Shown here: positions 2,768 to 30,479 of the stretch, piece after piece
How positions within the stretch are numbered: position 1 is the first letter of the stretch
Layout of the letters: each line of letters opens with the position of its first letter
IMG/VR virus record: IMGVR_UViG_3300006865_000002
Coordinates: 1 to 50,867 of that record
Length of the DNA: 50,867 nucleotides
Origin: a virus
Taxonomy: Duplodnaviria > Caudoviricetes
Strand: one strand, 5' to 3'
Position numbers and translations under genes: made by a program
The notes under the pieces: model-generated
Seen by the model: the letters and a program-made list of their open reading frames with translations, nothing else
Database searches by the model: none
What the model was told of the DNA's origin: nothing

Positions 2768-4174
2768 ATGTCGCTTCAAAGCCATGGTCAAATCCCCGCG
2801 CTGGACTTCGATAGGGTCCACCGTGCGGACGAACCGCGTTTGCGCCAGCCGATCCCCGCTCTTAACGCGGCGTTGGAGAACGCGAACCAAACGCTTGACA
2901 AGGTAGTTGCCGCGCTGAACCGCGCGGGCTCCAACCCCCGGAACCCGATTCTTTCCGGCCTTGGCGGTCAATTCCAATTCTCGTTGGCCGTGGCCGACCA
3001 GTTGAAGGGCGTTTTCATCTTTCAGGATCGGGCCAACATCGGTTCGAACCTGAAGCCCGTTACGTCGATTCTTGCGCCCGGCGTCTACGGGATTAATCAC
3101 GTCTATGGAGCCGGGCAATCAATCGCGGGCTCCCCCGCCACGGGCGCGCGGAAGAACTTCCTTCGTGTCCAATCGGCTTTCGGCACGGTGGAAAAGGAAT
3201 TTTGGGTCAAGACCAAGGACGCGGACATTGTGGCCGTGGACGGGAAGCCCGTCCTTGATCCCGACACGCTGCTACCCGTGGTCTTGGATTTCTTCATCGA
3301 AGACCCGTCCCGGCCTTGGCTTCAACTCCCTATCGACTTCTTCGTTTCGTGGAACGATGAATTTCAAGTCCTGCACAACGCCAAGAATCCGTTTCTTGAC
3401 CCGGGCTTCCTGAAAGCCTACGGCGGGTCCAAGTTCGTTTCGTTCTTCGACAGCATCCCGGGAACCGAGGGGGTGGGCGTCAAGGTCAACCCGGTTACGC
3501 AAGCCCCCATCGAAGATCAACACTTGGTCGAAGTCCAAAACACCCCGGGGTTGAAGGAATTTACCGTCCGGTTCCGATCCAAACTGGGTTCGCCCTACTT
3601 CGTGGACTGCCCGGTTGTCCTGAACATCATTGCCCCGCCCGTCACGTCTTGCGACCCCCCGGTTATGGGACCGCCCGAGACGTGTACGGCGGTCTTGGTC
3701 CCGTTCGGAACCCCGATCCCGGCGGGAGCCCCGGACGTTCCTTCGGTCCCGGGCGTTCCGGTCGTGGTCGGAACTCCGGGCAACCCGGCGACGAAAGACC
3801 TTCTAATCGTCACCGTGCGGGGCGCGGTCACGTCGGCGGGCAAAACCCTTCTGGTCCGCCGCTGGAAGTACGTAACGTCGCCCGCCGATTTGTCCGGTAC
3901 GTATACGGACATCGTGTCGGAAGTGGGGAACTACATCCCGCTTGCGAACCCGTCCGCCAGCCCCGCGCCGGGCTCCCCGTACAACCCGGGCGAACGGCTT
4001 ACCATGGCGTTCGACGTGGGCCAAGACCGGGCGGACCTTGTGGCGTGGTATACGGTTCAAGTCGTGGACGCGGCAGGGCTTGGGGGTCCGCCTATGCTGA
4101 TCCCCGGCCCCCGAGCCCGGGATATCCAGTTCACGGCCCCCGGCGGAACGGGCGGGGAAGGACTCTGCTACTAA
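2768..4174 (+). CDS. Putative tail/baseplate protein
   Basis: ATG just after the previous stop; Pro/Gly/Val-rich, beta-type composition; tail module. Confidence 0.55.
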   Translation: MSLQSHGQIPALDFDRVHRADEPRLRQPIPALNAALENANQTLDKVVAALNRAGSNPRNPILSGLGGQFQFSLAVADQLKGVFIFQDRANIGSNLKPVTSILAPGVYGINHVYGAGQSIAGSPATGARKNFLRVQSAFGTVEKEFWVKTKDADIVAVDGKPVLDPDTLLPVVLDFFIEDPSRPWLQLPIDFFVSWNDEFQVLHNAKNPFLDPGFLKAYGGSKFVSFFDSIPGTEGVGVKVNPVTQAPIEDQHLVEVQNTPGLKEFTVRFRSKLGSPYFVDCPVVLNIIAPPVTSCDPPVMGPPETCTAVLVPFGTPIPAGAPDVPSVPGVPVVVGTPGNPATKDLLIVTVRGAVTSAGKTLLVRRWKYVTSPADLSGTYTDIVSEVGNYIPLANPSASPAPGSPYNPGERLTMAFDVGQDRADLVAWYTVQVVDAAGLGGPPMLIPGPRARDIQFTAPGGTGGEGLCY

Positions 4175-4875
4175 TGCCGACCAAGCAAGCCCAATTGGTT
4201 ACGGCGGTCATGCCGACCCGGAATCGTCCGGGCTTGGTTAAGTTCGCCGTCGAACTCTTTTTGGCACAAACCTACCCGTGCAAAGAACTGATCATCGTTG
4301 ACGATGGGACGTTGCCCGCCGAAATCCCTTCGGATTCGCGGGTCAAGTATATTCGCGTGGAGCCCATGACCATTGGGGCCAAGCACAACCTTGGTTGTGG
4401 GCTGGCGCAGGGCGAATACATGATCCATTGGGACGACGACGATTGGTTTGCCCCGCGACGTATTTCAATGCAACTTGAGCCTATCGCGCTTGGAAAAGTC
4501 GCCATTACCGGAATCCCCATGGGCCATCAACTTCGGTTTGCTGAAAAGCAATTCTTCTACTGGAAACGCGGATACCCGCGCGGAACTCGCCCGGTCAAGT
4601 TCAAGTTCCACGACAGTACGGCGGCGTTTTCCCGAAAGGTTTGGGACTTCGGAATCCGGTACACGGATTTGAACATGGGGGAGAAGGTCGATTTCATCGA
4701 AGCCGCCATGCTGCAAGGCTTCGCGGAAACCCCGATCCCCAATCATGGGTTGTTCGTGTACGGTCGGCATCGTCGCAACGCTTGGGTGTTCCCCGACTTC
4801 TGGTTGCGGCCCGTGGTCCGACCCGGCAACTTCCCCGAATCGCATTTGGACCGATACGCGGAGATTGTGGGCTAA
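4174..4875 (+). CDS. Glycosyltransferase family 2 (GT-A fold)
   Basis: VMPTRNR...AQTY...ELIIVDDG...GAKHNLG...GEYMIHWDDDDW (DxD) motifs; TAATG coupling on both sides. Confidence 0.9.
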   Translation: MPTKQAQLVTAVMPTRNRPGLVKFAVELFLAQTYPCKELIIVDDGTLPAEIPSDSRVKYIRVEPMTIGAKHNLGCGLAQGEYMIHWDDDDWFAPRRISMQLEPIALGKVAITGIPMGHQLRFAEKQFFYWKRGYPRGTRPVKFKFHDSTAAFSRKVWDFGIRYTDLNMGEKVDFIEAAMLQGFAETPIPNHGLFVYGRHRRNAWVFPDFWLRPVVRPGNFPESHLDRYAEIVG

Positions 4876-12840: not shown

Positions 12841-12842
12841 CC

Positions 12843-14294
12843 ATGCGGCCCGCCCTTCCCCATCAAGTCAAAGGAATTGGCTACTGTTCCCGGTTCCATC
12901 ATCCCGCGTTGTTTATGGAAATGCGGCTAGGGAAAACCCTAGTCGCTATCCGCGCGTGTCGCAAATGGGGGGTCAAGGCCGTTTTGGTCTTGGCCCCCCT
13001 TTCCGTTTTGAAGTCTTGGGAAACCGAGTTGAAGGAAGAAGGGGAGTCTTGGATTTCGTCCCCGGACTCCGACCAACTCGATTTCGAATCCCCGCCGGAC
13101 GGAAAAATTGCTTGGGTCTTGGTCAACTTCGAAAGGTTGTTGGCGGGGTTCAAGGCTTGCGACAATCCCCAAGACCAGCCGGAAGACAAGTCCCAAGAAC
13201 GGCGGTTCCGTCGTTTACTCGCGCGGTTCAAGCGTTGCGATTACGACGACTCGCCCCGGCTGGCCGCGTGGTCCGCGTGGGAATCCCAATTCGATACGGT
13301 CATAGTGGACGAATCAACCCGCATCAAGAACCCGAAGGCCATGATTACGCGGTTGGTCACGACCGCCTTTCGGGGCGCGGACCATCGGGCGATTCTGTCG
13401 GGGCTACCGAACCCGGAAGGCCCGCTAGACTTCGTGGAGCAATTCCGGTTCCTGCACGGTCGGTTCATGCGGGCCAAAACCTATTGGTCCTTCCGGGCGC
13501 GCAACTTCGAACCTTTGGACTATCAATGGGTGCCTAAGCCCGGGGTCCGTCAAGGGATCAAGGCCGAAGTCGGTAGGTTGTCCTTCATCATGAGCCGCAA
13601 GGAAGCGGGGATCGGTTCGAAGAAGATTTATTCGCGTCGTTATATCCAACCGACTACGGAACAAACCGAGTTGTTCGACCAAGTGGAAGGCGAATACCGT
13701 TTGGGCGAACAGGAAACGAAATATTCCCTTGTAATCCATTCGTGGTTGGGTAGAATTGCCGGGGGTCACGGGGAGGATTGGAACGTTGTATCCGAGAGAA
13801 AGGGACGAGAAGTCGTGACGCTGCTAGAGGGGGAACTAAGGCGCGAACCCGCCTTGGTCCTGTTCCGCTTCAATGCGGAACTCCGCTTGGTCGCCGGGAT
13901 GCTTCGCCGGGCTCGAATCCCGTTCGTATGGATTACGGGCGAGACTTCGCCGGACGAACGCCACGCGCGGCGGCTTCTCTTTCAGAAAGGGCGTGCCCGG
14001 GTCGCCCTTCTGCAAATAAAGGTTTGCAAGTACGGGCTGGACTTCTCCCGCGCGTCCACGTCGATCTACTATTCCAATTCGTTTTCGCTGGACGAACGGC
14101 GGCAGTCCGAAGATCGTATCATCCATCCCATGAAGAAAGACCCGCTCTTGTATATCGACTTGTTGACGCGGGACTCCGTGGACGAATCGCTTTCGGAAGC
14201 GTTGCGGATCAAGGGCGCGGATTCGTCTTGGTTCCTCCGTAAGTTCTTCCAGCTTGAAAGGGAACGCATTGTCCGCCGTCTTCGTGTCTCTTGA
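12843..14294 (+). CDS. SNF2-family (SF2) helicase
   Basis: MEMRLGKT, IVDESTRIKN, LSGLP, GLDFS...QSEDRI. Confidence 0.9.
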   Translation: MRPALPHQVKGIGYCSRFHHPALFMEMRLGKTLVAIRACRKWGVKAVLVLAPLSVLKSWETELKEEGESWISSPDSDQLDFESPPDGKIAWVLVNFERLLAGFKACDNPQDQPEDKSQERRFRRLLARFKRCDYDDSPRLAAWSAWESQFDTVIVDESTRIKNPKAMITRLVTTAFRGADHRAILSGLPNPEGPLDFVEQFRFLHGRFMRAKTYWSFRARNFEPLDYQWVPKPGVRQGIKAEVGRLSFIMSRKEAGIGSKKIYSRRYIQPTTEQTELFDQVEGEYRLGEQETKYSLVIHSWLGRIAGGHGEDWNVVSERKGREVVTLLEGELRREPALVLFRFNAELRLVAGMLRRARIPFVWITGETSPDERHARRLLFQKGRARVALLQIKVCKYGLDFSRASTSIYYSNSFSLDERRQSEDRIIHPMKKDPLLYIDLLTRDSVDESLSEALRIKGADSSWFLRKFFQLERERIVRRLRVS

Positions 14295-16297: not shown

Positions 16298-16299
16298 CC

Positions 16300-17109
16300 A
16301 TGGTCCTGAAGAAGAAGGTTGCGCCCGCCGCGCCCGTGCTGACCCTGCCGGACGAACCTACGGTCCCCGTTGGGGAGTTGGGCCGCTATTCGATGCTTCT
16401 CTACGGGTTGGAGAAGATCGGCAAAACGTCCTTGGCCGCGCAGTTCCCCGAAGCGTTCTTCCTCTTGTGCGAACCCGGCGGCAAGGCTTTGTCGCTGTTC
16501 TCCCGGGAAGTGAAGAACTGGGGCCAGTTCAAGACCTACCTTGACCTTCTGGACAAGAACCCTACCCGGTTCGGAACCGTGGTCGTGGACACCGTGGACT
16601 TGGCGTTCAAGTATTGCGAAGAATACATGCTTCGCAAACTTGGGATCGTCCACGAATCGGACGAAGAATGGGGCAAGGGCTGGTCGCTGGTCCGAAACGA
16701 ATTCGCTATGACCATGGCCCGAATCATCAACGGGCCGCGCGGAACGATCTTCATTTCCCACGCGACCGAAAAGAAGCTGAAGCGGCGCGACGGTAGGTCG
16801 TCGGATAGGATCGTCCCGACGATGCCCAACCAAGCCCGGCAAGTCTTGGAGCCCATGGTTGACATTTGGGCTTACTATCAGTACAGCGACGGCGGGAAGC
16901 GAATCCTTACGATCCGGGGCGACGACTTCATAGCCGCCGGGCATCGGGTCAAGGAACACTTCGTCGGCGTGACCGATGTTTCCATGGGCGATTCGCCCGA
17001 AGAGGGATATAGAAACTACGTCGCGGCCTTCAACAAGACCGCGCCCGTTGCCCCGGCAGGGGAGAAAGGAGGGGAATCGAAGCGCGTTGTTCGCATCGTC
17101 CGGCGATAG
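16300..17109 (+). CDS. AAA_24 / Sak4-like ATPase
   Basis: LYGLEKIGKTS Walker A, VVVDTVD Walker B, GKGW, FISHA. Confidence 0.85.
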   Translation: MVLKKKVAPAAPVLTLPDEPTVPVGELGRYSMLLYGLEKIGKTSLAAQFPEAFFLLCEPGGKALSLFSREVKNWGQFKTYLDLLDKNPTRFGTVVVDTVDLAFKYCEEYMLRKLGIVHESDEEWGKGWSLVRNEFAMTMARIINGPRGTIFISHATEKKLKRRDGRSSDRIVPTMPNQARQVLEPMVDIWAYYQYSDGGKRILTIRGDDFIAAGHRVKEHFVGVTDVSMGDSPEEGYRNYVAAFNKTAPVAPAGEKGGESKRVVRIVRR

Positions 17110-17158
17110 CAGTAAAGGGAAGTGGAACGACTTTGACTTAGAATGAAAGGGATTTGAA

Positions 17159-18037
17159 ATGGCATCCGAGTTTTCCAATCGGCTGAAGAAGTTGGGCGCG
17201 AACTGGAAGAAGGCCAGCAAGCGCGACCCTTCCGAGTTCGGCGGGTCTTCCGTCGAAGACGGAATCTACCGTCTCCGCATCACGGAATGCGAGTTGACGG
17301 AATCCGTTTCCTCCGGTCGGCTCCAAATCCATTGGGGCTTCACCGTGGAGGAAGGCGATTCCAAGGGCGAACAGGTTCACGACTACGACGGCTTGGAGTC
17401 GGAAGACAACTTGTTTTTCCTTCAGCGGAAACTTGCCCGGTTGGGCAAGGAAGTTCCCGAAGACATTTCGGCAATCGAACCCGTGTTGGCCGAAATCGTC
17501 AAGGAACGGCCCTTGATCCGTGGCCGGGTCAAGACCAAGGACGACTTCACGCACGTCTATATCAACAAGATGTTGGACGACAAGGGGCAGGACGTGGAGT
17601 TCGCGGAGCCGGACGGCGCGGAGCCCGAGCCCGAGGAAGAAGGCGGCGAGGAAGCCGCCCCGGAAGCGGAGCCCGAAGCCGCCCCGGAGGAAGTCCAGCC
17701 GGAAGCCGAAGCGGAGCCCGCCGCCGAAGCGGAACCCGAGGGGGTCGCGCTGGAAGAGGGAATGCGCGTGACCTTCAAGAGCAAGGGCGCGGACGTCGAA
17801 GGCGAAATCGTGGAGTTCGTGGAGAACGACACGAAAGCCCGGGTCAAGACCGACGCGGGCGTTTACAAGGTCGCCGTGGACGCCCTGTCCCCCGTGGAAG
17901 GCGAAGCGGAGCCCGAGCCCGAGCCCGAGCCGGAACCGGAGCCGAAGAAGAAGGCCCCGGCCAAGGCTCCCGCCAAGGCCCCGGCGAAGCCCGCCCCGAC
18001 CAAGACGACGGGGAAGGTTTCCAAGGTCAAGCGGTAG
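17159..18037 (+). CDS. DUF669-like ssDNA-binding protein with acidic linker, SH3-like domain and Lys/Ala/Pro tail
   Basis: DGIYRLRITECE OB-like start; synteny after the exonuclease and Sak4; EP repeats. Confidence 0.7.
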   Translation: MASEFSNRLKKLGANWKKASKRDPSEFGGSSVEDGIYRLRITECELTESVSSGRLQIHWGFTVEEGDSKGEQVHDYDGLESEDNLFFLQRKLARLGKEVPEDISAIEPVLAEIVKERPLIRGRVKTKDDFTHVYINKMLDDKGQDVEFAEPDGAEPEPEEEGGEEAAPEAEPEAAPEEVQPEAEAEPAAEAEPEGVALEEGMRVTFKSKGADVEGEIVEFVENDTKARVKTDAGVYKVAVDALSPVEGEAEPEPEPEPEPEPKKKAPAKAPAKAPAKPAPTKTTGKVSKVKR

Positions 18038-18095
18038 TCCACTACCTACCGGAGTCCGGGGGGCGGGCCTGTTGTCCGCTCCCCGGCCCGGTCCT

Positions 18096-18169
18096 TGGCC
18101 CGTCGTCTAATGGTAGGACAAGGGACTTTGAATCCCTTTATCTAGGTTCGAATCCTAGCGGGCCAGCCA
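18096..18169 (+). tRNA. trnQ: tRNA-Gln (anticodon TTG)
   Basis: Cloverleaf: acceptor TGGCCCG/CGGGCCA, anticodon arm AGGGA-CTTTGAA-TCCCT, T arm CTAGG-TTCGAAT-CCTAG, encoded CCA. Confidence 0.95.
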
Positions 18170-18195
18170 AAGGGCTTTGATGGAGACTACGGCCC

Positions 18196-20319
18196 ATGGG
18201 CGCGCTTCGGGAATATCTGGCGTCGTTGCCCCCGGCAGTCAAGAAAGTACAAGACATCGTAGGGGACCACGAAACCCTAGTTGCTTTGAAATCCCCGGTT
18301 GCTTGCGACACGGAAACGACCGGGCTTAACCCGTGGTTGGGCGACCGCCCTTATGCCTTCAGCTTTTGCGATTGCGAAGGCCGAAAGGCGTTCGTCCGTG
18401 GCCGGGTCGATCCGCTGACCCGCGAAGTTTCCATAGCCAAACCCGATTGGCGTTCCATGGTCAACTTCTTCGGGGACGCCAACGGCGTTCGGGTTTTCCA
18501 CCACGCCAAGTTCGATATCAGGATGTTGGAATCCACGGGCATTCAGGTTAGGGGCAAGATCGAAGAAACGATGTTCGCCCTTCACGCCCTGCACAACATG
18601 GAACCTAGCTTCAAGCTGAAGAAGTTGGGCGCGAAGTACCTTGACATTCCCGACGACGACGAAAAGGAATTGAGAAAGGCGACGGCCAAGGCCCGGCTTC
18701 AGGCTAAGAAGAAGGGTTGGAAGATTGCCGAAAAGGGTTCGCACGGCGACGACCCCATAGCCGCCGACTATTGGCTTGCGCCGGAAGAACTTTTGAAGCG
18801 GTACGCGCTGACGGATGCGGAGCGGACCATTCTTCTTTGGCTTATGGCCGATGGGGTCTTAGACGAAGAGGAAGTCCGAGACACTTACGAACGGGAAATG
18901 CGGTTGTTCCCCGTGACCTACGGCGCGGAGTCTCGCGGGGTCAAGATCGAAAAGGCCGTGGTGGATCGGGAAATCGTCAACCACGAATCCGCTTTGAAAA
19001 AGGCTTTGGACGAACTACAGAAGTGGAAGCCGGGGATCAATCTTAATTCCCCCATTCAGCTTCGGCGGTTCATGTACCAGCCCAAAGAGAAGGGCGGGCT
19101 TGGGATTCCCCCGGTCTACGACAAGGACACGGGCAACGAGACGACCGACGCGGAAGCGTTGCAGGGAATCCAACATCCTTTCGCGCGGCTTGTGTCAAGG
19201 GTCCGGGCGCATGAAAAGGCCCTGTCGTCCTTCTTCCTGAAGTATCGCGCCCTGTCGATTCCCGACCCGCTCAACCCCGGCGGGCTGGTCCTGCATCCCG
19301 ACTTTCAGCAAGTCGGTCCCGTCACGGGCCGCTACTCCTGCCGTCAACCCAACCTTCAAAACGTGGCCGACGCCAGCGGAGCGGGATTCACCACGGAGCC
19401 CATTCAAGCCCGAACCCCTTTCGGACCTAGGCCGGGATACGTTTGGTATCACTTCGACTTCAGCCAGCTTGAACTACGCATCTTCGCGGACGTGGCGCAA
19501 GAACCGACCATGTTAACCGCCATTCACGAAGGCGGCGACATTCACGGCAACACGGCCCGGAAGATTTGGGGACGCCAGCGGCCCGAAGCCGCAATCAAGG
19601 CGGCGGTATCCGCCCTTGGGCTGGACGGAAAGGAAGCGGAGAACACCCCGAAGGCAATCGAAACAGTCAAGGCCCTTCGAAGCAAGCGGCCCACGCTCAA
19701 AGAAGAAGGGTTGGCCGTGCTTTGGCTGGATCAATTCGATTGGGACATCAACAAGGCCGAAGCATCAATCGACAAAAAGAACAGCCGGAAGAAGGCGAAA
19801 ATCATCAACTTCCTAACCGTTTACGGCGGTTGGGCGGACGCCGTGGCGTCGAAGCTGGTTTGCACTAGGTCCGAAGCCGAAGAGTTGTTGGAAGAGTACC
19901 ACGCGACCTTCGACCGAATCCGGCCCTACTCCGAAGAACTTTCGTCGCTTGTATACCGGGATGGTTTTATCCGAAACCGTTTCAACCGGAAACTTTGGGT
20001 TGATCCCGATTACGCTTACCGTGCGGTAAACTACATGGTACAGGGATCGGCGGCGGACTTGCTAAAGGACCGGATGATTGCCGTTGCCGAATATCTTTCG
20101 AAGATGCGGGCGAGGGGGATAGATGCCCACTTGGTCCTTACCATTCACGACGAAATCGTTATCGAAATCAAATGGGGTCACGTCTTCCCTTGGTTCCTTC
20201 GGAGAGTCCGGCGGATCATGGAAGACCACGGCGGGCGGTTCGGGCTCCCGCTTCCCGTGGACGTGGCACGAACCGTTACCCGCTGGAACGAAAAGAAGGA
20301 ACTGAAAGACTTCCGATAG
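18196..20319 (+). CDS. polA: DNA polymerase family A with 3'-5' exonuclease
   Basis: DTETTG, HHAKFD, YALTDA; TGRYSCRQPNLQN, DFSQLELR, KIINFLTVYG, NYMVQGSAAD, IHDE. Confidence 0.95.
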   Translation: MGALREYLASLPPAVKKVQDIVGDHETLVALKSPVACDTETTGLNPWLGDRPYAFSFCDCEGRKAFVRGRVDPLTREVSIAKPDWRSMVNFFGDANGVRVFHHAKFDIRMLESTGIQVRGKIEETMFALHALHNMEPSFKLKKLGAKYLDIPDDDEKELRKATAKARLQAKKKGWKIAEKGSHGDDPIAADYWLAPEELLKRYALTDAERTILLWLMADGVLDEEEVRDTYEREMRLFPVTYGAESRGVKIEKAVVDREIVNHESALKKALDELQKWKPGINLNSPIQLRRFMYQPKEKGGLGIPPVYDKDTGNETTDAEALQGIQHPFARLVSRVRAHEKALSSFFLKYRALSIPDPLNPGGLVLHPDFQQVGPVTGRYSCRQPNLQNVADASGAGFTTEPIQARTPFGPRPGYVWYHFDFSQLELRIFADVAQEPTMLTAIHEGGDIHGNTARKIWGRQRPEAAIKAAVSALGLDGKEAENTPKAIETVKALRSKRPTLKEEGLAVLWLDQFDWDINKAEASIDKKNSRKKAKIINFLTVYGGWADAVASKLVCTRSEAEELLEEYHATFDRIRPYSEELSSLVYRDGFIRNRFNRKLWVDPDYAYRAVNYMVQGSAADLLKDRMIAVAEYLSKMRARGIDAHLVLTIHDEIVIEIKWGHVFPWFLRRVRRIMEDHGGRFGLPLPVDVARTVTRWNEKKELKDFR

Positions 20320-20337
20320 AGGGGAGAAGGCGCGCGA

Positions 20338-22407
20338 ATGATTACGGAAGAAGCGGCGAAAGCCGTTCGGGGTTTCGTATCCCATGGGGTCGTGTTCCAC
20401 GACATGACCGGGGATCAAGTCATAGGAGATTGTCCGTTTTCCGGGTCCGCCAAAAAGTTCTATGTCAATTGGCGGAACAAACTTTGGGACTGTAAAGTTT
20501 GCGGGATGAAAGGGAACTTCGAATCCTTCCTAGCCCAAATCGGGAAGGAAAACACGGAGTTCTATAGGCAAACGCCAGAAGCCCAATCTACGTTGGCCGC
20601 GAACCGACAGCTTCCCAAGTCGGCCTTCGTGCGTTGGGAAGTCGGCTTCAACGGCGAGTCTTACACCATTCCGATTCGGAACGAAAAGGGCAAAATCGTT
20701 GATCTTCGCGGCTGGCGTCCGAAGCGGAAGTCCATGTCAACGCCCGGGGTCAATACCGGGTTGTTCGGCCACGACCAGCTACACGACCCCAAGCGCGCCA
20801 AGGAACCCGTCTACATTTGCGAAGGCGAATGGGACGCCATGGCCCTTGACTGGTTGCTCCGTCTTATTCAGAAACCCGGGGTTGTGGTCGGTCTCCCGGG
20901 GGCTAACACTCTGAAAACGGAATGGGTTCCTTCGTTCAAGGGCCGGGACGTTCGCGCCATGTACGACGCCGACGAAGCCGGGGCGCAAGGGGAAGCGCGC
21001 TGCTACGAACTCCTGTCCACGGCGGCTAAGTCCCTCCGGTTCGTGGAGTGGCCCGCCGACTCGCCGGACGGTTTCGATACTCGGGACTGGATCGTTGCCG
21101 GGGCGGTCAAGGGGAAGAAGCCCAAGGCTTGCTTCGCGGCCTTGGAAGCCATGATCCGGCGGACGAAGCCCCGGTCCAAGACCGCCGCCAAGGGAGAAGA
21201 GGAAGAAAAGGAAGCCGAGTCCAAGCCCGAGTTGAAACCGATTTCGCGCCAAGAACTGTTCGCGGAGTATAAGAAATGGCTTCATATGCGGGACGATGAA
21301 GCCTTGGCGGTCATGTTCGGAACGTGCTTCGCCAACCGTCTTCACGGCGACCCGCTTTGGCTTTTCTTCGTCGCGCCCCCGGGCGGCATGAAGTCCGAAC
21401 TTCTCATGTCCCTTTCGAATTGCGACGAAACCTATTCGGTTTCGACTCTAACGCCCCATGCTCTTGTGTCCGGCGCGTCTTGGGTCGGGGGCGAAGACCC
21501 GTCCTTGATTCCGAAGCTTGATAAAAAAGTCCTGATCATTAAGGACTTTACGACCACGCTTCAAATGAACCCCATGGCCCGGGACGAAATCTTCGGACAG
21601 CTTCGGGACGCTTACGACGGCAAATTCGAAAAGGTTTTCGGTAACGGGATAGTCCGCCGTTATAACTCCACGTTCGGCATTATCGCGGGCGTTACTCCCA
21701 ACATTGACGCTTTCAGTTCCCTTCACTCCGGGTTGGGCGAAAGGTTTTTGAAGTACAGGCTTGAAGGGAACACGGTTCACTTGGACGAACTGGAAAGGAT
21801 CATGCGCGCAATCGGGAACATCAACAAGGAAAACACGATGCGCGATTCGATCAAGGAAGCCGCCGCGCGCTTCCTTTCTCAGAAGATGCCGGACCCCGCC
21901 CCCGAACTGACTATGGACATGCGGTTGAAGGTCGGCAACCTTTCCATGCTGGCGGCTCGAATGCGCGGAGTCGTCAACCGGGACAAGTACGATTACCGCC
22001 TTATGACCAACAAGGCCAGCTTTGAAATCGGAACCCGATTGGGAAAGCAATTGTCCCGGCTTGCTATGGGGGTCGCAATCTACTACGGGGAGAAGACCCC
22101 TAGCGAAAGGACTTACAAGTTGGTTACGCGGGTCGCCATGTCCACGGTCCCCGACAAAATCGAGGAAGTGATACACGGACTTTGGAAGTTGTGTCCCAAC
22201 CCGAATAGCACGGCCCCCACCCCGGCGGTAAACAAGGCTTGCCCGATGCTGACCCCTTCAACCGTGTTCCGAACCTTGCAAGACTTGGCCGCTATCGGTA
22301 TGGTTAAACAAGTAGGGACGGGGGCCAAGTACCAATGGCAATTGGACGAATCCGTTAAGAACTTGATTAAGGGAGCGAATGCTTATGGCGTGGCACGGCT
22401 CGATTAG
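20338..22407 (+). CDS. Primase (Zn finger + Toprim) fused to an MCM-like AAA+ helicase domain
   Basis: CPF...CKVC, ICEGEWD, YDADEAG; PPGGMKS, ERFL, RLGKQLSRLA, C-terminal wHTH-like segment. Confidence 0.8.
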   Translation: MITEEAAKAVRGFVSHGVVFHDMTGDQVIGDCPFSGSAKKFYVNWRNKLWDCKVCGMKGNFESFLAQIGKENTEFYRQTPEAQSTLAANRQLPKSAFVRWEVGFNGESYTIPIRNEKGKIVDLRGWRPKRKSMSTPGVNTGLFGHDQLHDPKRAKEPVYICEGEWDAMALDWLLRLIQKPGVVVGLPGANTLKTEWVPSFKGRDVRAMYDADEAGAQGEARCYELLSTAAKSLRFVEWPADSPDGFDTRDWIVAGAVKGKKPKACFAALEAMIRRTKPRSKTAAKGEEEEKEAESKPELKPISRQELFAEYKKWLHMRDDEALAVMFGTCFANRLHGDPLWLFFVAPPGGMKSELLMSLSNCDETYSVSTLTPHALVSGASWVGGEDPSLIPKLDKKVLIIKDFTTTLQMNPMARDEIFGQLRDAYDGKFEKVFGNGIVRRYNSTFGIIAGVTPNIDAFSSLHSGLGERFLKYRLEGNTVHLDELERIMRAIGNINKENTMRDSIKEAAARFLSQKMPDPAPELTMDMRLKVGNLSMLAARMRGVVNRDKYDYRLMTNKASFEIGTRLGKQLSRLAMGVAIYYGEKTPSERTYKLVTRVAMSTVPDKIEEVIHGLWKLCPNPNSTAPTPAVNKACPMLTPSTVFRTLQDLAAIGMVKQVGTGAKYQWQLDESVKNLIKGANAYGVARLD

Positions 22408-22711
22408 GATTGGGGAGTCCGAAGGCGGACACGTCTTGGTTTTGTACCGGGGCGAAGCCCGCGTCTACGACTTGCAGGACGCGGAGAACGTGGCGAAGTT
22501 GCGCCGGGTCGCCAGCACGAACCATGCCGCCGGGATGAAGTTCCTATCCCGTTTCGCCCGGGTTCCCGACGCGGAAAAGGCCCACGTCCAAGCCCTGAAG
22601 TCCGGCAACGCGGCAGAGTTCAAAGCCATTTTGGACGCTATCAAGGCGGCGACCAAGCGGACGGAACCGCCCCCGCCCGCTCCCCCGCCCAAGAAAGGCA
22701 AGGGAAAATGA
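22379..22711 (+). CDS. Hypothetical protein
   Basis: Operon packing. Confidence 0.55.
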   Translation: MLMAWHGSIRIGESEGGHVLVLYRGEARVYDLQDAENVAKLRRVASTNHAAGMKFLSRFARVPDAEKAHVQALKSGNAAEFKAILDAIKAATKRTEPPPPAPPPKKGKGK

Positions 22712-23055
22712 CGGACGAACTTCCCGACCGTCTCAACATGGACAAGGCTTCTTCCGCGTTCAAGAACCTTGCGGGGAAGACGACCTATAAGGAACTCCAA
22801 AAGGTCTTGGCCGAACGCGGGTCATCCGTGTTTCGTGGCAGTATCAAGAGGGACGCCCAACAGAAGTCGGAGCGGGAAGCCCGGGAACGAGCGCAGGAAA
22901 TCGCCCGGCTTCGCGCGGAAGAAGAGGAATGCGGACGGCTGGCGTCAGAGTCGGACAAGGCCGGAAACTTCAAACGGTTTGCGCGCTTCTGGAACAGGAT
23001 GGACGCGGCGCGTCAAGGACTGATCCGGCTTGGGGCGGCGGGGCCGGGAGCCTAG
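22708..23055 (+). CDS. Hypothetical protein
   Basis: ATGA overlap. Confidence 0.55.
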   Translation: MTDELPDRLNMDKASSAFKNLAGKTTYKELQKVLAERGSSVFRGSIKRDAQQKSEREARERAQEIARLRAEEEECGRLASESDKAGNFKRFARFWNRMDAARQGLIRLGAAGPGA

Positions 23056-23058
23056 GAC

Positions 23059-23313
23059 GTGGCCCGCGCGGATAGAGAACGGGCCTATTTCAGAAGGTTG
23101 GAATTGGTCAAGAAACTTGGCGGGAAATGCGTCGATTGCGGGACGAAGGGGACGCCGAAGAACCCGCTTGAAATCGACCACGTTAACGGCAGGAATTACG
23201 ACTTGCGGAAAATGGACCCGTCTTGGCGCGTGTCTCGGTACTGGCAAGAGTTCCGAAACGGCGTTGAACTCGCCGTGCGTTGCAAGCGTTGTAACGCCAA
23301 CGCCCACAAGTAA
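23059..23313 (+). CDS. HNH endonuclease-like protein
   Basis: LGGKCVDCG...LEIDHVNG...CKRCN. Confidence 0.75.
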   Translation: MARADRERAYFRRLELVKKLGGKCVDCGTKGTPKNPLEIDHVNGRNYDLRKMDPSWRVSRYWQEFRNGVELAVRCKRCNANAHK

Positions 23314-23322
23314 GGGGGAGCA

Positions 23323-23631
23323 ATGGAAGAGAAGTTGATTCACAAGGAAGGGCCGTTCCACTTCATGTTGGACCGGGAAGGGAAAATCCGAATCGACTTG
23401 CCGGACGGTCACGGCCCCAAGCTGTCCAAGGATGAAGTCCGCCAGCTTTCCCGGGGCGCGCGGTTCGTAGCGGGGTCGTTGGAGAACGCCGCGCCCTACC
23501 CCGGCCCGGTATGCCGTCACCGTTGCCGGACGTGCGACGAAGTTTGGACGCACGACCCCGAGAAACTCGAATGCCGTTGGGCCTACGATGATCTTTGCGG
23601 CGATTGCGCCGGGATGGAAAGGACCAAATGA
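23323..23631 (+). CDS. Hypothetical Zn-binding protein
   Basis: HRCRTC...C...CGDC; RBS gggggag. Confidence 0.55.
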   Translation: MEEKLIHKEGPFHFMLDREGKIRIDLPDGHGPKLSKDEVRQLSRGARFVAGSLENAAPYPGPVCRHRCRTCDEVWTHDPEKLECRWAYDDLCGDCAGMERTK

Positions 23632-24062
23632 GAAAGCTAACCGACTTGGAAGCCTTGGACGCGGAAAGGGAATTCCAGCTATTCAACGAACCCCGGAAGG
23701 ATTCCCCGCCCAACGAACGGGAAGCGTTCATGGCCGGGCTACAATTCCAATTGGGCATGGCGGACAAGGCTAGGGCGCGGGAAGTGTTCGAGCAAGAACG
23801 GTTCAAGCGCGCTTGGATTCTCGCGCGCCAAATGTCCGCCGTGTCCGCCCAAACCATTTTGGTTTTGAACAACGTCCGAAAGCGGCTGATCATAGGGCCG
23901 GACCAAAAGCCCGTGGACACGCTGGGAATCGGCAAGACCATTGAGACGGTCGCCAGCGCGCTAAAGTCCGCCGAAAAGGTCTTGGAAATCCTGAAGGTCG
24001 TACAACCGGACGGCAACGGGAATCCCATCCTTCCCAAGTTGCCGGAAGCGGGGGGCAACTAA
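23628..24062 (+). CDS. Hypothetical protein
   Basis: ATGA overlap, RBS aagga. Confidence 0.55.
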   Translation: MRKLTDLEALDAEREFQLFNEPRKDSPPNEREAFMAGLQFQLGMADKARAREVFEQERFKRAWILARQMSAVSAQTILVLNNVRKRLIIGPDQKPVDTLGIGKTIETVASALKSAEKVLEILKVVQPDGNGNPILPKLPEAGGN

Positions 24063-24649
24063 TGGGGAAATGCTGCAAGGAACACAAGCCCATGGACAAG
24101 GCCCGCGTGTTCGGGGTCGGGCTTTCTAGGACGGGGACTTCCAGCTTGACCAAGGCCCTAAGCGTGTTGGGCTGGAAGGCCGTTCATTGGCCGCTGTCCA
24201 TCAAAGAGATTTGCGCGGCGGAAGCGGCCACGGACATAACCGTATCGGTACGTTTCCGCGAGTTGGACCAGTCCTTCCCCGGCTCCAAGTTCGTCTTGAC
24301 CGTTCGCGCGGTCGGGTCTTGGATGGAGTCCCTTCGATCCTACTTCGACCTTGCCCATGCCCGCTACGTGAAGCGGAGTCTTTATCCCGCCCAATGGGAT
24401 TTCGTCGCGGACGCCGAACGAAAGCTATACGGAAAACTGTTGGGCTTCTCCAAGTTCACGGACGAACAATTGTTCGACGCATACAACAACCACGAAAGGG
24501 CCGTCCGAAGATACTTCACGACCCGACCCGCTCAACTGCTGGTCTTTGACGTGTCGGAAGGATGGTCCCCGCTTTGCCGATTCTTGGGCGTTCCGATCCC
24601 GGCGGAACGATTCCCCCATTGGAACCGGGTAGAGGATAAGCCCCGATGA
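24062..24649 (+). CDS. PAPS-dependent sulfotransferase (Sulfotransfer_4-like)
   Basis: 5'-PSB loop GLSRTGTSSL, 3'-PB motif FVLTVR...W..S, C-terminal GWSPLCRFLG.P.P...FPHWN. Confidence 0.85.
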   Translation: MGKCCKEHKPMDKARVFGVGLSRTGTSSLTKALSVLGWKAVHWPLSIKEICAAEAATDITVSVRFRELDQSFPGSKFVLTVRAVGSWMESLRSYFDLAHARYVKRSLYPAQWDFVADAERKLYGKLLGFSKFTDEQLFDAYNNHERAVRRYFTTRPAQLLVFDVSEGWSPLCRFLGVPIPAERFPHWNRVEDKPR

Positions 24650-25146
24650 TCGTTTGGATTACGGGCCTACCGTGTTCGGGAAAAACGACCTTGGCCTACG
24701 AACTCCACAAGCGGATTGCCCTTGGCCGCGCGGTCGTGCTGGACGCCGAAGACATGCGGTCGAACTTGTGGCCGGAAATCGGCTACAGCGACCAAGACCG
24801 CCGGGACAATATGCAGCGGTTGGGCTACCTTGCCCGGATGTTCTCCCAACTTGGTTTGGTCGCCATTGTCGCGGCGGTATCCCCCTTCAGAGATACCCGC
24901 AACACGATTCGGGCTTGCAACCCCGGGGTGTTCTTCGAAGTGTATTTGGAATGCCCGTTCGATGCGCGTTATGCGCGGGACAAGCGCGGCATACTTGGCC
25001 CGCCTACGTGGAGTCGGGACGAATCGTATTACGAACCCCCGGGTATGCCGGAAATCCACGGCCATACGGACACGGAATCCCCCGACGCGCTGGCCGACCG
25101 CGTTATACGGGCCATGGTCGAAAAGGGGCTGGTCCATGCCCATTGA
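24646..25146 (+). CDS. cysC: Adenylyl-sulfate (APS) kinase
   Basis: IVWITGLPCSGKTT, LDAEDMR, GYSDQDRRDN, VSPF, EVYLECP, RDKRG, YEPP. Confidence 0.9.
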   Translation: MIVWITGLPCSGKTTLAYELHKRIALGRAVVLDAEDMRSNLWPEIGYSDQDRRDNMQRLGYLARMFSQLGLVAIVAAVSPFRDTRNTIRACNPGVFFEVYLECPFDARYARDKRGILGPPTWSRDESYYEPPGMPEIHGHTDTESPDALADRVIRAMVEKGLVHAH

Positions 25147-25423
25147 TCCGACCGGACCCGCCGTCATGGTCGCGGCGCGCGGCGCGGTATGGTGGGGCTA
25201 TGCCGTCGAACGCCGGGGCAAGCGCGAAGCGTGGTTGATCCAGTCCCCGGACGGCGGTTTCCGGTACGCTTCCATTCATGCGACTTTGTATCACTACGAC
25301 CCCAAAGCGTTCGCGGCCTTGGCCGCGCTGCATCGGGACTTGGAGCCCCGCGACCCGGAGTTCGAAAAGGAATGGCGGGCCATAGTCGATAGGCTCGAAT
25401 TGTTTTCACCGAAATCTACTTGA
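25136..25423 (+). CDS. Hypothetical protein
   Basis: Overlaps the cysC stop. Confidence 0.5.
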   Translation: MPIDPTGPAVMVAARGAVWWGYAVERRGKREAWLIQSPDGGFRYASIHATLYHYDPKAFAALAALHRDLEPRDPEFEKEWRAIVDRLELFSPKST

Positions 25424-25449
25424 CTTGACCCCGTGACTAGGTAAGACTT

Positions 25450-25737
25450 ATGGACGAAATGACTATCGAAGAGTACCGCGAGAACCTGAAGACGTGCGCG
25501 CTTGCTTCGATGTTCTTGGAGCGGGTCAACGTCCCCGACATGCTGGAACGGATCGAACGCGCCGACGCATTCGGCGGCATGATCGACCCCACGCTTTACA
25601 GGGAAAAGCGCGGGGCCATGATGGAAGACAAGGAACTTTTGGAAGCGGCCTTGCCCCTTTGGAGATACGCCCAAAAGGTCCGCGAGTCCATCAACCAAAA
25701 GGCTTTGGAGGAACGGAAGAAAGCGGAAACGGCATAA
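25450..25737 (+). CDS. Hypothetical protein
   Basis: Clean ORF with phage-typical codon use. Confidence 0.6.
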   Translation: MDEMTIEEYRENLKTCALASMFLERVNVPDMLERIERADAFGGMIDPTLYREKRGAMMEDKELLEAALPLWRYAQKVRESINQKALEERKKAETA

Positions 25738-25888
25738 CAAACCATCCCTCTTCGGATCTACTTAGGCCCCCAAAACGTCTTGGGGGAAGTTGGAACCGAT
25801 GGAGGGTTGGACCATGAAGGAAATCCCGGTTGCGTTCATGGACGGTTCGGGGCGGAAAGCCATTCTCATACTTGATGGAGGGTCCAAC

Positions 25889-26146
25889 ATGGCGCGCAAG
25901 TTCCCCGTGTTCGAAGTATTCCACTCCAACCGCGCGAAGGAATACCGTTGGCGGCTCCGTTCGACCAACGGCGAAATCGTCGCGGCGTCCGGCGACGGCT
26001 TCAAGCAGCGCGCGGGGGTCGTGAACGCCATTCGCGCGGTCAAGCTGGCGGCGGCGCGGGGCGTGGTCGAAGCGGTCAAGGTCGTTCCCAAGCGGCTGTT
26101 GCGGAAGCCCAAGGCCGCGAAGCCCAAGGCGAATAAGGCCAGCTAA
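25889..26146 (+). CDS. YegP/DUF1508 family protein with basic tail
   Basis: FEVF...YRWRLRSTNGEIVAASGDGF...NAI motif. Confidence 0.8.
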   Translation: MARKFPVFEVFHSNRAKEYRWRLRSTNGEIVAASGDGFKQRAGVVNAIRAVKLAAARGVVEAVKVVPKRLLRKPKAAKPKANKAS

Positions 26147-26173
26147 CCAACCGCCTTTTCCTCCCTCTCTCGG

Positions 26174-26201
26174 GGCCGGGTAGCAATACCCGGCCTTTTT
26201 T
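26174..26201 (+). terminator. Rho-independent terminator
   Basis: GGCCGGGTA-GCAA-TACCCGGCC followed by T6. Confidence 0.85.
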
Positions 26202-26211
26202 ATTTTGCCAC

Positions 26212-26239
26212 TTGACTTTATGGCATAAAGTTGTATAGT
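26212..26239 (+). promoter_or_regulatory. sigma70-type promoter with palindromic operator in the spacer
   Basis: TTGACT-N16-TATAGT containing CTTTATGGCATAAAG (26216-26230). Confidence 0.7.
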
Positions 26240-26265
26240 TAGGCAGAGTGAAAGGAGGAACGACG

Positions 26266-26481
26266 ATGCTTACCCCGGAGGAAATGAAGGCCCGGCGCGC
26301 CCCGTGCGAGTTCCAGTCAAGGCCGTACTTCCCGATTGATCCCCGACCGGACGGCGACGACCTTTGGGACCGCTACTTCCGGCTGGTCCTTCGTCACCAC
26401 GTCGGAGCCGAAACCGAAGTCCGTTGGATCGACGAACCCAACGTGGTTTACGGTTGGGTAATCGGACTTGCCCCGCGTTGA
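26266..26481 (+). CDS. Hypothetical protein
   Basis: RBS aaaggagg. Confidence 0.6.
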   Translation: MLTPEEMKARRAPCEFQSRPYFPIDPRPDGDDLWDRYFRLVLRHHVGAETEVRWIDEPNVVYGWVIGLAPR

Positions 26482-26484
26482 AAC

Positions 26485-26517
26485 CTTTATGGCATAAAGT
26501 CTTTTTATGACATAAAG
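26485..26517. promoter_or_regulatory. Tandem palindromic sites (putative enhancer/UAS)
   Basis: CTTTATGGCATAAAG and TTTATGACATAAAG, about 85-117 nt upstream of the predicted sigma54 TSS. Confidence 0.65.
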
Positions 26518-26575
26518 TGTCAACACTTTACGTAAATTGTCACAACGGAACCGCGAACGCGCTTCAAAAATCGCT

Positions 26576-26591
26576 TGGCACGAAACTTGCA
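26576..26591 (+). promoter_or_regulatory. sigma54 (-24/-12) promoter
   Basis: TGGCACGAAACTTGCA matches TGGCACG-N4-TTGCW in an intergenic region. Confidence 0.75.
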
Positions 26592-26657
26592 GTAAGTAGG
26601 TAGTCGGGTCGGATGGTCCGGCCCAATGCTCTTTGGAAATCGGAAAGGAGGAACGGC

Positions 26658-27197
26658 TTGAACATTGAGCAAGCCTACGAACGGACCAACGCCGTTAAGC
26701 CCGAAGGCACGGTCACGCCACTTACCTTTGAGGAAGCGGAGAAGGCAATCCGAAAGATGTTCCGCCACTTGAAGGGGCGTCGGTTCCCTTACCGCATCGT
26801 GGAGACTTCCGGCAACCGCTACACTTGGCTAAGGGGATCGGAGTTCCGCGTCAACGTGGGCAACGGCTGGTCGGACTTGATCCACTTGTTTTCCCATTGG
26901 TTCCATAGGGAGTACGTCGGGGGTCGGCCCCACTCCAAGAAACACGCCCGGCTTGAAAAGAACCTTCGCAAGTGGGCCGTGGCGCGGGGCTGGTTCAACG
27001 GATCGTTGAAGCCCAAGCCCAAGGAACCGAAGCCGGAACCCGTGGCCGCGCCCGTGGACTTCGTGGCAAAGCGCGAAGCCAAGGCGCGTCGGATGCTGGC
27101 GAAGTGGGAACGCAAGTTGGAGTTGGCGAAGGGCCATCTTCAGAAGTGGCGGGCCAAGGTCCGCTACTACGACAGGAAGAAGACGGCCAGCGCGTAG
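26658..27197 (+). CDS. Hypothetical basic protein with His cluster (possible zincin-like metal site)
   Basis: RBS aaaggagg + TTG; LIHLFSHWFH...PH...H. Confidence 0.6.
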   Translation: MNIEQAYERTNAVKPEGTVTPLTFEEAEKAIRKMFRHLKGRRFPYRIVETSGNRYTWLRGSEFRVNVGNGWSDLIHLFSHWFHREYVGGRPHSKKHARLEKNLRKWAVARGWFNGSLKPKPKEPKPEPVAAPVDFVAKREAKARRMLAKWERKLELAKGHLQKWRAKVRYYDRKKTASA

Positions 27198-28645: not shown

Positions 28646-29217
28646 TGGCTTTCGAACTCCCGACCAAGCCCCGAGCCCATGGGCATAAGTGGTACGAATG
28701 CCCGGGGAATCACGCTTACGCGAACTCTTGCCAGTTTTGCGACGGCGGGCTTGGTTGGTGCATCCGTTGTGACTGTTTCGAGGGGGAACTTACTTACACT
28801 TGCCCGGGAAGGAAAATGACCCGGGAGGAAAAGGCCCTTTCCTATGCGGGTTGGCTTAACTTCGTGAACGGGCGTTGGATCAAGAAACGTCCGGCCTTGA
28901 TCGTTGAAAAGTACCTTCATCCGGGGGCGCGTGGCGAAAAGGCAAACGCGGCGGTTTCAAAAACCGTTGGGGCAACCCTTGGGGGTTCGACTCCCCCCGC
29001 GCCCACTATTCACCGTTGCCATTGGCCCAACTGCATTCATGAAGTTCCGCCCCGGCTTTGGGGCTGTCGCTTCCATTGGTTCAAACTTCCCAAAGAACTT
29101 AGGGACGCCATTTGGCGGACCTACGTTCCCGGGCAGGAAGTGACCAAGACCCCTTCGCCCGCGTACATCAAGGCCGCGCAAGCCGTCCAAGAGTGGATCA
29201 AAGGGAACCGCGAATGA
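28645..29217 (+). CDS. Two-domain Cys/His-rich protein whose linker is encoded by a tRNA gene
   Basis: TAATG start; CQFC..CIRC..CPG domain and HRCHWPNC..C..HW domain; open frame throughout. Confidence 0.6.
   Translation: MAFELPTKPRAHGHKWYECPGNHAYANSCQFCDGGLGWCIRCDCFEGELTYTCPGRKMTREEKALSYAGWLNFVNGRWIKKRPALIVEKYLHPGARGEKANAAVSKTVGATLGGSTPPAPTIHRCHWPNCIHEVPPRLWGCRFHWFKLPKELRDAIWRTYVPGQEVTKTPSPAYIKAAQAVQEWIKGNRE
28925..29005 (+). tRNA. trnL: tRNA-Leu (anticodon CAA), type II, no encoded CCA
   Basis: Acceptor GGGCGCG/CGCGCCC, anticodon arm GCGGT-TTCAAAA-ACCGT, variable arm GGG-GCAA-CCC, T arm GGGGG-TTCGACT-CCCCC, A73. Confidence 0.85.
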
Positions 29218-30403: not shown

Positions 30404-30479
30404 GGCCCCATCGTCTAGTGGCCTAGGATGTCACCCTTTCAAGGTGAAGACACGGGTTCGAATCCCGTTGGGGCTACCA
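30404..30479 (+). tRNA. trnE: tRNA-Glu (anticodon TTC)
   Basis: Acceptor GGCCCCA/TGGGGCT, anticodon arm TCACC-CTTTCAA-GGTGA, T arm ACGGG-TTCGAAT-CCCGT, encoded CCA. Confidence 0.95.

Follow-up and report, generated by a model that had tools for sequence, protein, structure and literature searches.

Certain bacterial gene sets combine a dedicated supply of 3′-phosphoadenosine 5′-phosphosulfate (PAPS) with a sulfotransferase, as is the case of NodP/NodQ with NodH in Sinorhizobium and of RaxP/RaxQ with RaxST in Xanthomonas. In sets of these two types, a mobile accessory sulfate-activation gene is located beside a PAPS-dependent sulfotransferase, and the PAPS serves for one sulfated product, not for cysteine. 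In a cultured phage, the Ralstonia phage phiRSL1 (AB366653.2), an adenosine 5′-phosphosulfate (APS) kinase (ORF238) and a sulfotransferase-like protein (ORF232) are annotated with some 4.7 kb separating them, a stretch that includes sugar-nucleotide enzymes; no paper on the function of either was found. The present study deals with a pair of genes in the virus record IMGVR_UViG_3300006865_000002 (Caudoviricetes), analyzed over its whole length of 50,867 bp (the window). One of the genes encodes a sulfotransferase of the Pfam family Sulfotransfer_4 (hereafter ST4), and the other a divergent P-loop kinase of the APS-kinase family (Table 1). PAPS-dependent sulfation with a dedicated kinase was already known; the novelty lies in its form here, a phage cassette of two genes whose kinase belongs to an unusual clade.

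The interpretation that we favour, with a probability of about one half, is that the pair may be a self-contained sulfation module, in which host APS is converted to PAPS for the sulfation of a carbohydrate, the specific acceptor being a proposal. The phage is tailed and probably virulent, and its early/replication operon would hold the two genes as an accessory unit. Host sulfate-activation enzymes would supply APS, the kinase would phosphorylate its 3′-OH to give PAPS, and the translationally coupled ST4 enzyme would spend this PAPS on the O-sulfation of a hydroxyl in an acceptor of carbohydrate type. The likeliest acceptor would be a polysaccharide or glycolipid of the host envelope, with the product of the family-2 glycosyltransferase (GT2) of the phage as an alternative. 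Many bacteria reduce APS directly, and an APS kinase of its own would free the phage from dependence on host PAPS production. Any benefit to the phage might come from an altered surface charge or receptor.

The boundaries of the cassette were established by comparison with a sister phage. A search with the primase-helicase-like protein of the window gave 48 related IMG/VR loci, the closest of which (L038, 83% amino-acid identity) belongs to a record of 51,019 bp rated 100% complete (G001). The sister is collinear with the window, with about 76% nucleotide identity in blastn from approximately 9.8 kb to 33 kb of the latter. Positions 2249–13680 of L038 correspond to 12601–24027 of the window, and 13698–14218 to 25153–25682; 17 bp in the sister take the place of about 1.1 kb that comprises exactly the two cassette genes, and the sister homologues of both flanking genes overlap each other directly. 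No match to Sulfotransfer_4 or APS_kinase was found in the whole sister record, which retains the GT2 (60.7 bits). Since a complete and collinear sister has the GT2 and is devoid of exactly these two genes, the pair is a discrete accessory cassette, not tied to the GT2. Neither cassette gene was present within 10 kb of the primase in any of the 48 primase-related loci. Protein copies with 62–65% identity exist elsewhere, the closest relatives being P0002 (62%) and P0106 (65%), on one 3,918-bp Logan contig each, and P0107 (64%), on a Logan contig of 50,424 bp; to judge by the equal length alone, P0002 and P0106 may be on the same contig. Searches of 50,697 cultured-phage records with the cassette DNA (blastn) and with the sulfotransferase protein (tblastn) found nothing, and exact-peptide scans of IMG/VR with either single cassette protein gave no close relative.

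Concerning the coupling of the genes, the original prediction, made by a model from the sequence alone, had described a sulfotransferase and a cysC-family gene joined by an ATGA overlap. This was confirmed by the list of open reading frames (ORFs), by direct reading of the sequence and by Pfam, with both matches far outside chance. The pair is in turn linked to its neighbours, because a TAATG overlap at 24060–24064 joins the upstream 155-aa gene to the sulfotransferase, and the downstream 95-aa gene begins 11 nt within the end of the kinase. The start of the sulfotransferase is ambiguous between M1 (24062) and M11 (24092). The fact that homologues begin 2–5 residues ahead of the VFG motif bears on this choice, and in the structural model residues 1–10 have a mean predicted local distance difference test score (pLDDT) of 51, with residues 1–5 below 50. 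In view of the gene overlaps on both sides, of the absence of promoter-like sites within the pair or immediately upstream (none between 22300 and 25594 by consensus scan) and of the location of the next strong hairpin (Table 1), the cassette is probably co-transcribed with genes of the replication region. That hairpin and the promoter-like site that follows it probably mark where the cassette's operon ends.

In composition, the sulfotransferase and the kinase are core-like, with values of 0.58 and 0.60 for GC content, 0.73 and 0.73 for GC at third codon positions (GC3), and 0.91 and 0.92 for the cosine of codon use, respectively. This match to the phage core genes indicates that the cassette is no fresh import. 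Like a phage moron, the pair is present here, absent from a close relative and located between conserved genes; an own promoter and terminator and a deviant composition, also typical of morons, are not found in it. In the hot-spring metagenome of a second study, short contigs identical to this phage were found across 22000–27000, at a depth of about 2, and one of them, of 245 nt, spans the sulfotransferase/kinase junction. The best-matching run belongs to another study and may be the source of the record itself, so it was given no weight as support; the runs compared consisted of DNA contigs, and no RNA data set was listed as containing this sequence. The same phage, cassette included, occurs thus in more than one study.

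The AlphaFold2 (AF2) model of the sulfotransferase has a pLDDT of 92.0. Its best Foldseek matches were SgdX2 (8y9p), Cpz8 (9kf1 and 9kf2, solved with PAP) and the Schistosoma sulfotransferases (4mua and 5tiz), with query TM-scores (TMq) of 0.68–0.73, as for 8y9p, 9kf2 and 5tiz, and E values of about 1e-11 to 1e-9, the identity to the solved enzymes being 23–28%. Both the family profile and the predicted fold are those of Sulfotransfer_4. Residues 20–28 (GLSRTGTSS) form what we take to be the 5′-phosphosulfate-binding (5′-PSB-like) loop, and R82 and S90 are presumably the 3′-phosphate-binding Arg/Ser. In 24 aligned homologues, G20, T24-G25-T26, S28, R82 and S90 are invariant, S22, R23, D58 and H144 are nearly so, and the FPH-N tail is invariant or nearly invariant. 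These PAPS-binding-type motifs line up with those of the solved enzymes, and each of the three PDB alignments shown places an Asp opposite D58.

Concerning the kinase, all 24 PDB sequence matches were APS kinases or APS-kinase(-like) domains of bifunctional enzymes, with a best E value of 9e-22. Its AF2 model (pLDDT 92.7) is predicted to have the APS-kinase fold, since every Foldseek match listed was an APS-kinase(-like) structure with TMq 0.77–0.90, including APS-bound forms with values up to 0.90. The P-loop GxxxxGK[ST] is present as GLPCSGKTT at residues 7–15, in columns that are near-invariant among 120 homologues. Together with it, D33, R38, R52, N55, R58, S79-P80, R111 and D112 are conserved. 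The residues aligned with the APS-binding Arg, Asn and aromatic positions and with the SP motif are all kept (R38, Y47, R52, N55, R58 and S79-P80), and we take their roles to be those assigned in the fungal and human structures.

The complete record gave no match to PAPS_reduct (PF01507), which covers CysH and CysD, and none to ATP sulfurylase (PF01747). As the phage encodes no ATP sulfurylase, it must draw on host APS. The first absence had been claimed in the original prediction, together with the view that the pathway is one of dedicated sulfate transfer and not of assimilation, and this view is supported by both absences and by the neighbours of viral APS kinases. Among 50 IMG/VR loci of viral APS kinases, 45 had a gene call for the kinase and 37 were non-redundant, which gave 141 flanking proteins. 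Sulfotransferases and a small nucleotidyltransferase family were the commonest neighbours: Sulfotransfer_3 and Sulfotransfer_1 (7 each, partly the same proteins), CTP_transf_like (7), GT1 (5), Sulfotransfer_2 (3) and ST4 (1). PAPS_reduct was outside the 25 commonest neighbour families of the 37 loci. When 10 directly adjacent genes, picked by hand, were scanned individually, five were sulfotransferases over the cut-off (L173, L178, L182, L201 and L217) and one was under it (L185); of the other four, an epimerase, a PIG-L deacetylase and a weak Nucleotid_trans match were sugar-related, and one had no match. As judged from these gene contents, the association of APS kinase with sulfotransferase is a recurring viral combination that involves various sulfotransferase families, and the version of this phage is a minimal one. 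The order ST4-then-kinase is found in other viral lineages, L024/L037 and L171/L172, with an ATGA overlap in L024, as in this phage, and a GTGA overlap in L171. The fact that none of 80 bacterial ST4 loci has an APS kinase within 8 kb makes the pairing look specific to mobile, self-sufficient versions.

Other arrangements were observed around viral APS kinases. Some of these kinases have about 285 aa (L178:4650-5504, and also L196, L209, L213 and L218), with an N-terminal CTP_transf_like part (HxGH nucleotidyltransferase) confirmed by Pfam for L178. In L024:6534-7356, ST4 and a 140-aa kinase-like gene are followed by a 135-aa ORF with an HxGH-type motif seen by eye and no Pfam match. Such a CTP_transf_like/kinase arrangement could be a minimal sulfate-adenylylating enzyme. 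Kinase ORFs of about 236–250 aa (L183, L185, L190, L191, L194, L198, L201 and L217) carry an N-terminal extension of about 70–90 residues, hydrophobic by eye.

The surroundings of ST4 relatives were considered as clues to the acceptor. From 35 viral IMG/VR loci, seven near-duplicates (L006, L007, L021, L027, L028, L036 and L037) and two loci without gene call (L012 and L034) were dropped; the remaining 26, with two genes per side where present, gave 100 proteins. The commonest Pfam families among them were GT25 (10), NAD-dependent epimerase/dehydratase (8, counting several overlapping families on the same proteins), Nucleotid_trans (4), FkbM methyltransferase (3) and GT2 (3). Two viral contigs, of 106 kb (L171) and 101 kb (L172), contain single ORFs (L171:3415-5001, 529 aa; L172:3375-4772, 465 aa) in which a Glyco_transf_7C/GT2-like domain is followed by an ST4 domain, with an APS kinase adjoining; that ST4 domain is 35% identical to this sulfotransferase (E 1e-32). 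Among longer ST4 relatives (>342 aa), 3 of 19 have glycosyltransferase domains and none of the 19 has an APS kinase. A collection of bacterial genomes gave 204 matching stretches, with 80 kept and identities of at most 43%. Loci of at least 9 kb with four neighbours were taken in order of similarity (L132, L133, L135, L141, L149, L150 and L151 were then dropped to keep the set within a size limit), and the 120 neighbours of the remaining 30 loci included Sulfotransfer_3 (11), Sulfotransfer_1 (7), GT1 (6), ST4 (5), GT8 (5), ABC transporter (4) and GT2 (3). By their gene content, these bacterial neighbourhoods have the look of sulfated-polysaccharide clusters. The neighbours and the glycosyltransferase fusions, in relatives that are only 35–43% identical, make a carbohydrate the best-supported class of putative acceptor.

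A low-GC viral fragment shows how such surroundings may be composed. In L024:3357-9977, an epimerase/dehydratase, two unassigned ORFs (226 and 270 aa) and a GT25 are located around the ST4/kinase pair, the epimerase and the GT25 being assigned by Pfam, and downstream ORFs resemble glyceraldehyde-3-phosphate dehydrogenase and aldolase by eye only.

Several observations weigh against the interpretation of the cassette as a module that makes PAPS and sulfates a carbohydrate, and the atypical kinase is the main risk to it. Passages of PMC4373884 on CysC from Mycobacterium tuberculosis describe Asp480, second Asp in LDGD, as the probable catalytic base, its equivalent being essential in the mouse enzyme, lid Lys562 as a transition-state stabiliser, lid Cys556 as essential (Cys-to-Ser inactive), and residues 552–581 as a lid that must close. 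When these residues were placed on the phage kinase by motif spacing, not by direct alignment, LDGD was found replaced by L32-D33-A34-E35, with Glu35 in the column of the proposed base (D in 112 and E in 8 of 120 homologues) and Ala34 in that of the preceding Gly (G 115, A 3, S 2). Likewise, Arg108 occupies the column of the lid Cys (C 108, R 5), and Arg114 that of the transition-state Lys (K 114, R 5). About 22 alignment columns, the YKKA and FTG motifs among them, are missing from the lid, which in M. tuberculosis CysC has some 30 residues and bears Cys556, Arg559 and Lys562; R111 and D112 are kept, and blocks 111–120 and 121–130 of the model have pLDDT 84 and 67. The kinase passes the Pfam cut-off and is under all the NCBIfam APS-kinase cut-offs (110.5 bits versus 138.7 for TIGR00455, and likewise for five other models). 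Nonetheless, Glu35 keeps the carboxylate, which leaves APS-kinase activity possible, and E35, R108 and R114 are common to the four members of the clade formed by this kinase with P0105 (79% identical), P0106 (65%) and P0107 (64%). As the changes keep charge (D to E, K to R) and co-vary, they look like those of a working variant, not decay, and real doubt about the substrate remains. The kinase could be something other than an APS kinase, which would 3′-phosphorylate another nucleotide-linked donor or phosphorylate the acceptor, with its partner transferring a non-sulfate group. An analogy is provided by the O-methyl phosphoramidate (MeOPN) pathway of Campylobacter, in which cytidine diphosphoramidate is 3′-phosphorylated by a homologue of CysC. 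This would be in agreement with the co-varying base, lid Cys and lid Lys changes and the lid truncation shared by the whole clade, with the scores under the NCBIfam equivalog cut-off, and with the rarity of the clade, which amounts to four sequences in the protein search, while a JGI metagenome scan with all four members gave 15 loci, none above 35% identity. It seems distinctly improbable, considering that APS-binding-aligned residues (R38, Y47, R52, N55 and S79) are kept, that the replacements preserve charge, that the fold matches APS-bound structures, that no gene able to build another donor was found here, though most small ORFs are unassigned, and that, of the related substrates, only APS is available in every host that assimilates sulfate. 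Another unfavourable point is that a kinase occurs within 6 kb of ST4 at just two of the 35 viral loci, L024 and L037, which are near-duplicates of each other; the kinase is therefore no general requirement. A quite different view would be that of an ordinary assimilatory auxiliary gene, with cysC boosting host cysteine synthesis and the sulfotransferase being incidental, as could be expected from a survey of virus organosulfur genes that lists viral cysC under assimilatory sulfate reduction (preprint 10.1101/2021.01.05.425418). It is most improbable in a phage that encodes no PAPS reductase and has the kinase translationally coupled to a PAPS consumer, and the viral APS kinases examined above adjoin sulfotransferases and sugar enzymes, with PAPS_reduct outside the 25 commonest neighbour families.

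The acceptor raises its own objections. All the solved ST4 relatives are described as acting on small molecules, as their deposition titles indicate: SgdX2 is deposited as a ‘bacterial activating sulfotransferase’, Cpz8 belongs to caprazamycin synthesis, and the Schistosoma enzymes are oxamniquine sulfotransferases. In addition, the cassette has no glycan gene for a neighbour, and the GT2 is located 19 kb off, in the structural region, and is kept in the sister that has no cassette. The same PAPS chemistry could be directed to a small molecule, be it a host metabolite, a signal, an antibiotic or a defence-related compound, and an early/replication operon, where host-takeover genes would be common, would be a fitting place for such a function. 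We consider it rather unlikely, because this sulfotransferase is closer to relatives in glycan contexts (35–43% identity) than to the solved enzymes, and because the neighbour tallies and the glycosyltransferase-ST4 fusions favour carbohydrates. The original prediction had placed first the glycan of the GT2, which on virion proteins would give a sulfated coat. The glycan-type class is indeed the one best supported by the context of relatives, the GT2 does exist in the structural half of the genome, and the L171/L172 fusions beside an APS kinase show viral coupling of a glycosyltransferase to this sulfotransferase family. However, the link to this particular GT2 is weakened by its retention in the sister, by its distance from the cassette, presumably in a different transcription block, and by its lack of similarity to the glycosyltransferase domain of the L171 fusion (E 0.2); virion glycosylation is itself hypothetical here. 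The ‘tail operon’ in which the GT2 had been placed rests on position only, the surroundings being large unassigned ORFs downstream of a weak tape-measure-like ORF (E 3.5e-4). A sulfated virion coat is thus regarded as improbable, and the GT2 only as a candidate partner of the cassette. As for phage DNA, or sugars on DNA, sulfated as an anti-restriction modification, the position in the replication region is the only point in favour of it. We found no sign that DNA is the acceptor, the ORFs scanned include no gene for base hypermodification or DNA glycosylation, and the sister shares the whole replication module without the cassette, which makes this part of the prediction hardly credible.

Turning to the genome as a whole, the record carries direct terminal repeats, and its completeness is estimated at 100%. 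It encodes a family-A DNA polymerase, an SNF2-type helicase, a PD-(D/E)XK nuclease, the primase-helicase-like protein and an AAA_24 ATPase; its portal is Mu-type and its major capsid protein E-type. A search for tyrosine integrases found none in the genome. On the basis of this gene content and of the lack of a tyrosine integrase, the genome is that of a tailed phage, probably virulent. A protein of the uracil-DNA glycosylase (UDG) superfamily is encoded within the replication module (14580–15317, E 8e-21), and a small HNH endonuclease, of which the sister phage has one too, about 0.75 kb upstream of the cassette (23059–23313, PHROG E 6e-6).

Table 1. Location of the cassette, its flanking signals and other features in the window
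Feature	Position	Strand	Evidence and remarks
Sulfotransferase gene, 195 aa	24062..24649	+	Pfam Sulfotransfer_4 PF17784 (S. mansoni-type), E 9.6e-37, 127.3 bits vs cut-off 22.8
Divergent APS-kinase-family P-loop kinase gene, 166 aa	24646..25146	+	Pfam APS_kinase PF01583, E 6.3e-30, 104.7 bits vs cut-off 21.1
ATGA stop/start overlap (sulfotransferase TGA / kinase ATG)	24646..24649	+	Direct sequence reading
Cassette by sister comparison (present here, absent there)	24028..25152	+	blastn and junction alignment
Upstream flanking gene, 155 aa, no family	23595..24062	+	Kept in sister (155-aa ORF 13227..13694); last residues differ at junction
Downstream flanking gene, 95 aa, no family	25136..25423	+	Kept in sister (91-aa ORF 13684..13959)
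DUF1508 protein	25790-26146		E 2e-10; terminator-like hairpin next, then promoter-like site
Terminator-like hairpin, 11 pairs and T run	26172..26197	+	Consensus scan only; strongest in region
Promoter-like site	26212-26239		Score 10/12; consensus scan only
GT2-family glycosyltransferase, 233 aa, DDDD motif	4174..4875	+	PF00535 at 4204-4617, 56.1 bits; weak WcaA/TuaG-type NCBIfam matches
tRNA Gln(TTG)	18096-18169		
tRNA Leu(CAA)	28925-29006		
tRNA Glu(TTC)	30404-30479		

In relation to the literature, it had been stated in the original prediction that no phage sulfation system of this form has been characterised. This agrees with our search, in which no paper describing or testing a phage APS-kinase/sulfotransferase module was found, subscription journals and supplements being outside the search and supplements possibly listing such pairs. 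The gene combination, however, is not unique, as it recurs in IMG/VR and both genes are annotated in phiRSL1. The organosulfur survey mentioned above has 0 occurrences of sulfotransferase in its text (10.1101/2021.01.05.425418), and a passage of a glacier-ice virome paper refers to sulfotransferase as a previously reported auxiliary gene (PMC8290583). We would tentatively advance, as a conjecture with more doubt than confidence in it, that a widespread viral activity has gone unrecognised: the ‘cysC auxiliary metabolic genes’ counted in surveys would mostly feed viral sulfotransferases that sulfate glycans of the host surface or the virion, and the short-lid clade with Glu as the base would be a streamlined phage APS kinase. 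If many viral cysC genes feed sulfotransferases set among sugar enzymes, as the neighbour counts suggest, their bookkeeping as assimilation genes would be wrong.

If viral cysC genes are used in this way, phages would add negatively charged sulfate to bacterial or virion glycans, and this could alter receptor recognition, superinfection, the biofilm matrix or the stickiness of particles. The present locus is a clean test case, with a complete genome and a sister that differs at the cassette locus by exactly two genes; a phage pair differing by the cassette alone would be a natural tool to study the role of glycan sulfation in phages. The kinase clade is also of enzymological interest, as three residues held to be catalytic or essential are replaced and most of the lid is gone, yet the enzyme is conserved and coupled to a PAPS user.

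The comparison with known proteins and systems defines the position of this cassette. With canonical CysC proteins (M. tuberculosis 4bzp; Penicillium chrysogenum 1m7g), the kinase shares the fold, the P-loop, the first Asp of LDGD, the APS-binding-aligned Arg and Asn residues and the SP motif, and it differs from them in LDAE in place of LDGD, in Arg in place of the lid Cys and Lys, in a lid shorter by about 22 columns and in sub-cut-off NCBIfam scores. With SgdX2, Cpz8 and the Schistosoma enzymes, the sulfotransferase shares the family, the fold, the PAPS-binding-type motifs and the Asp aligned with D58; the solved chains have 212–263 aa versus 195 aa here, and relatives of the phage enzyme occur in glycan contexts, not in natural-product or drug contexts. 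The L171 and L172 loci are like this phage in the sulfotransferase family, in the gene order and, in L171, in the near-overlap of the genes, but they have a sulfotransferase fused to a glycosyltransferase and a kinase with canonical LDGD. The phiRSL1 kinase is distantly related (31.6% identity across 78% of this kinase) and is encoded in a jumbo phage of 231 kb where the two genes are not adjacent and the sulfotransferase is not detectably related by tblastn. Finally, the NodPQ/NodH and RaxPQ/RaxST sets include an ATP sulfurylase, so that ATP sulfurylase, APS kinase and sulfotransferase occur together in them, whereas the phage has neither PF01747 nor PF01507 in its genome. Compared to those bacterial sets, the unit described here is phage-borne, consists of two genes only and employs a sulfotransferase of a different family, ST4.

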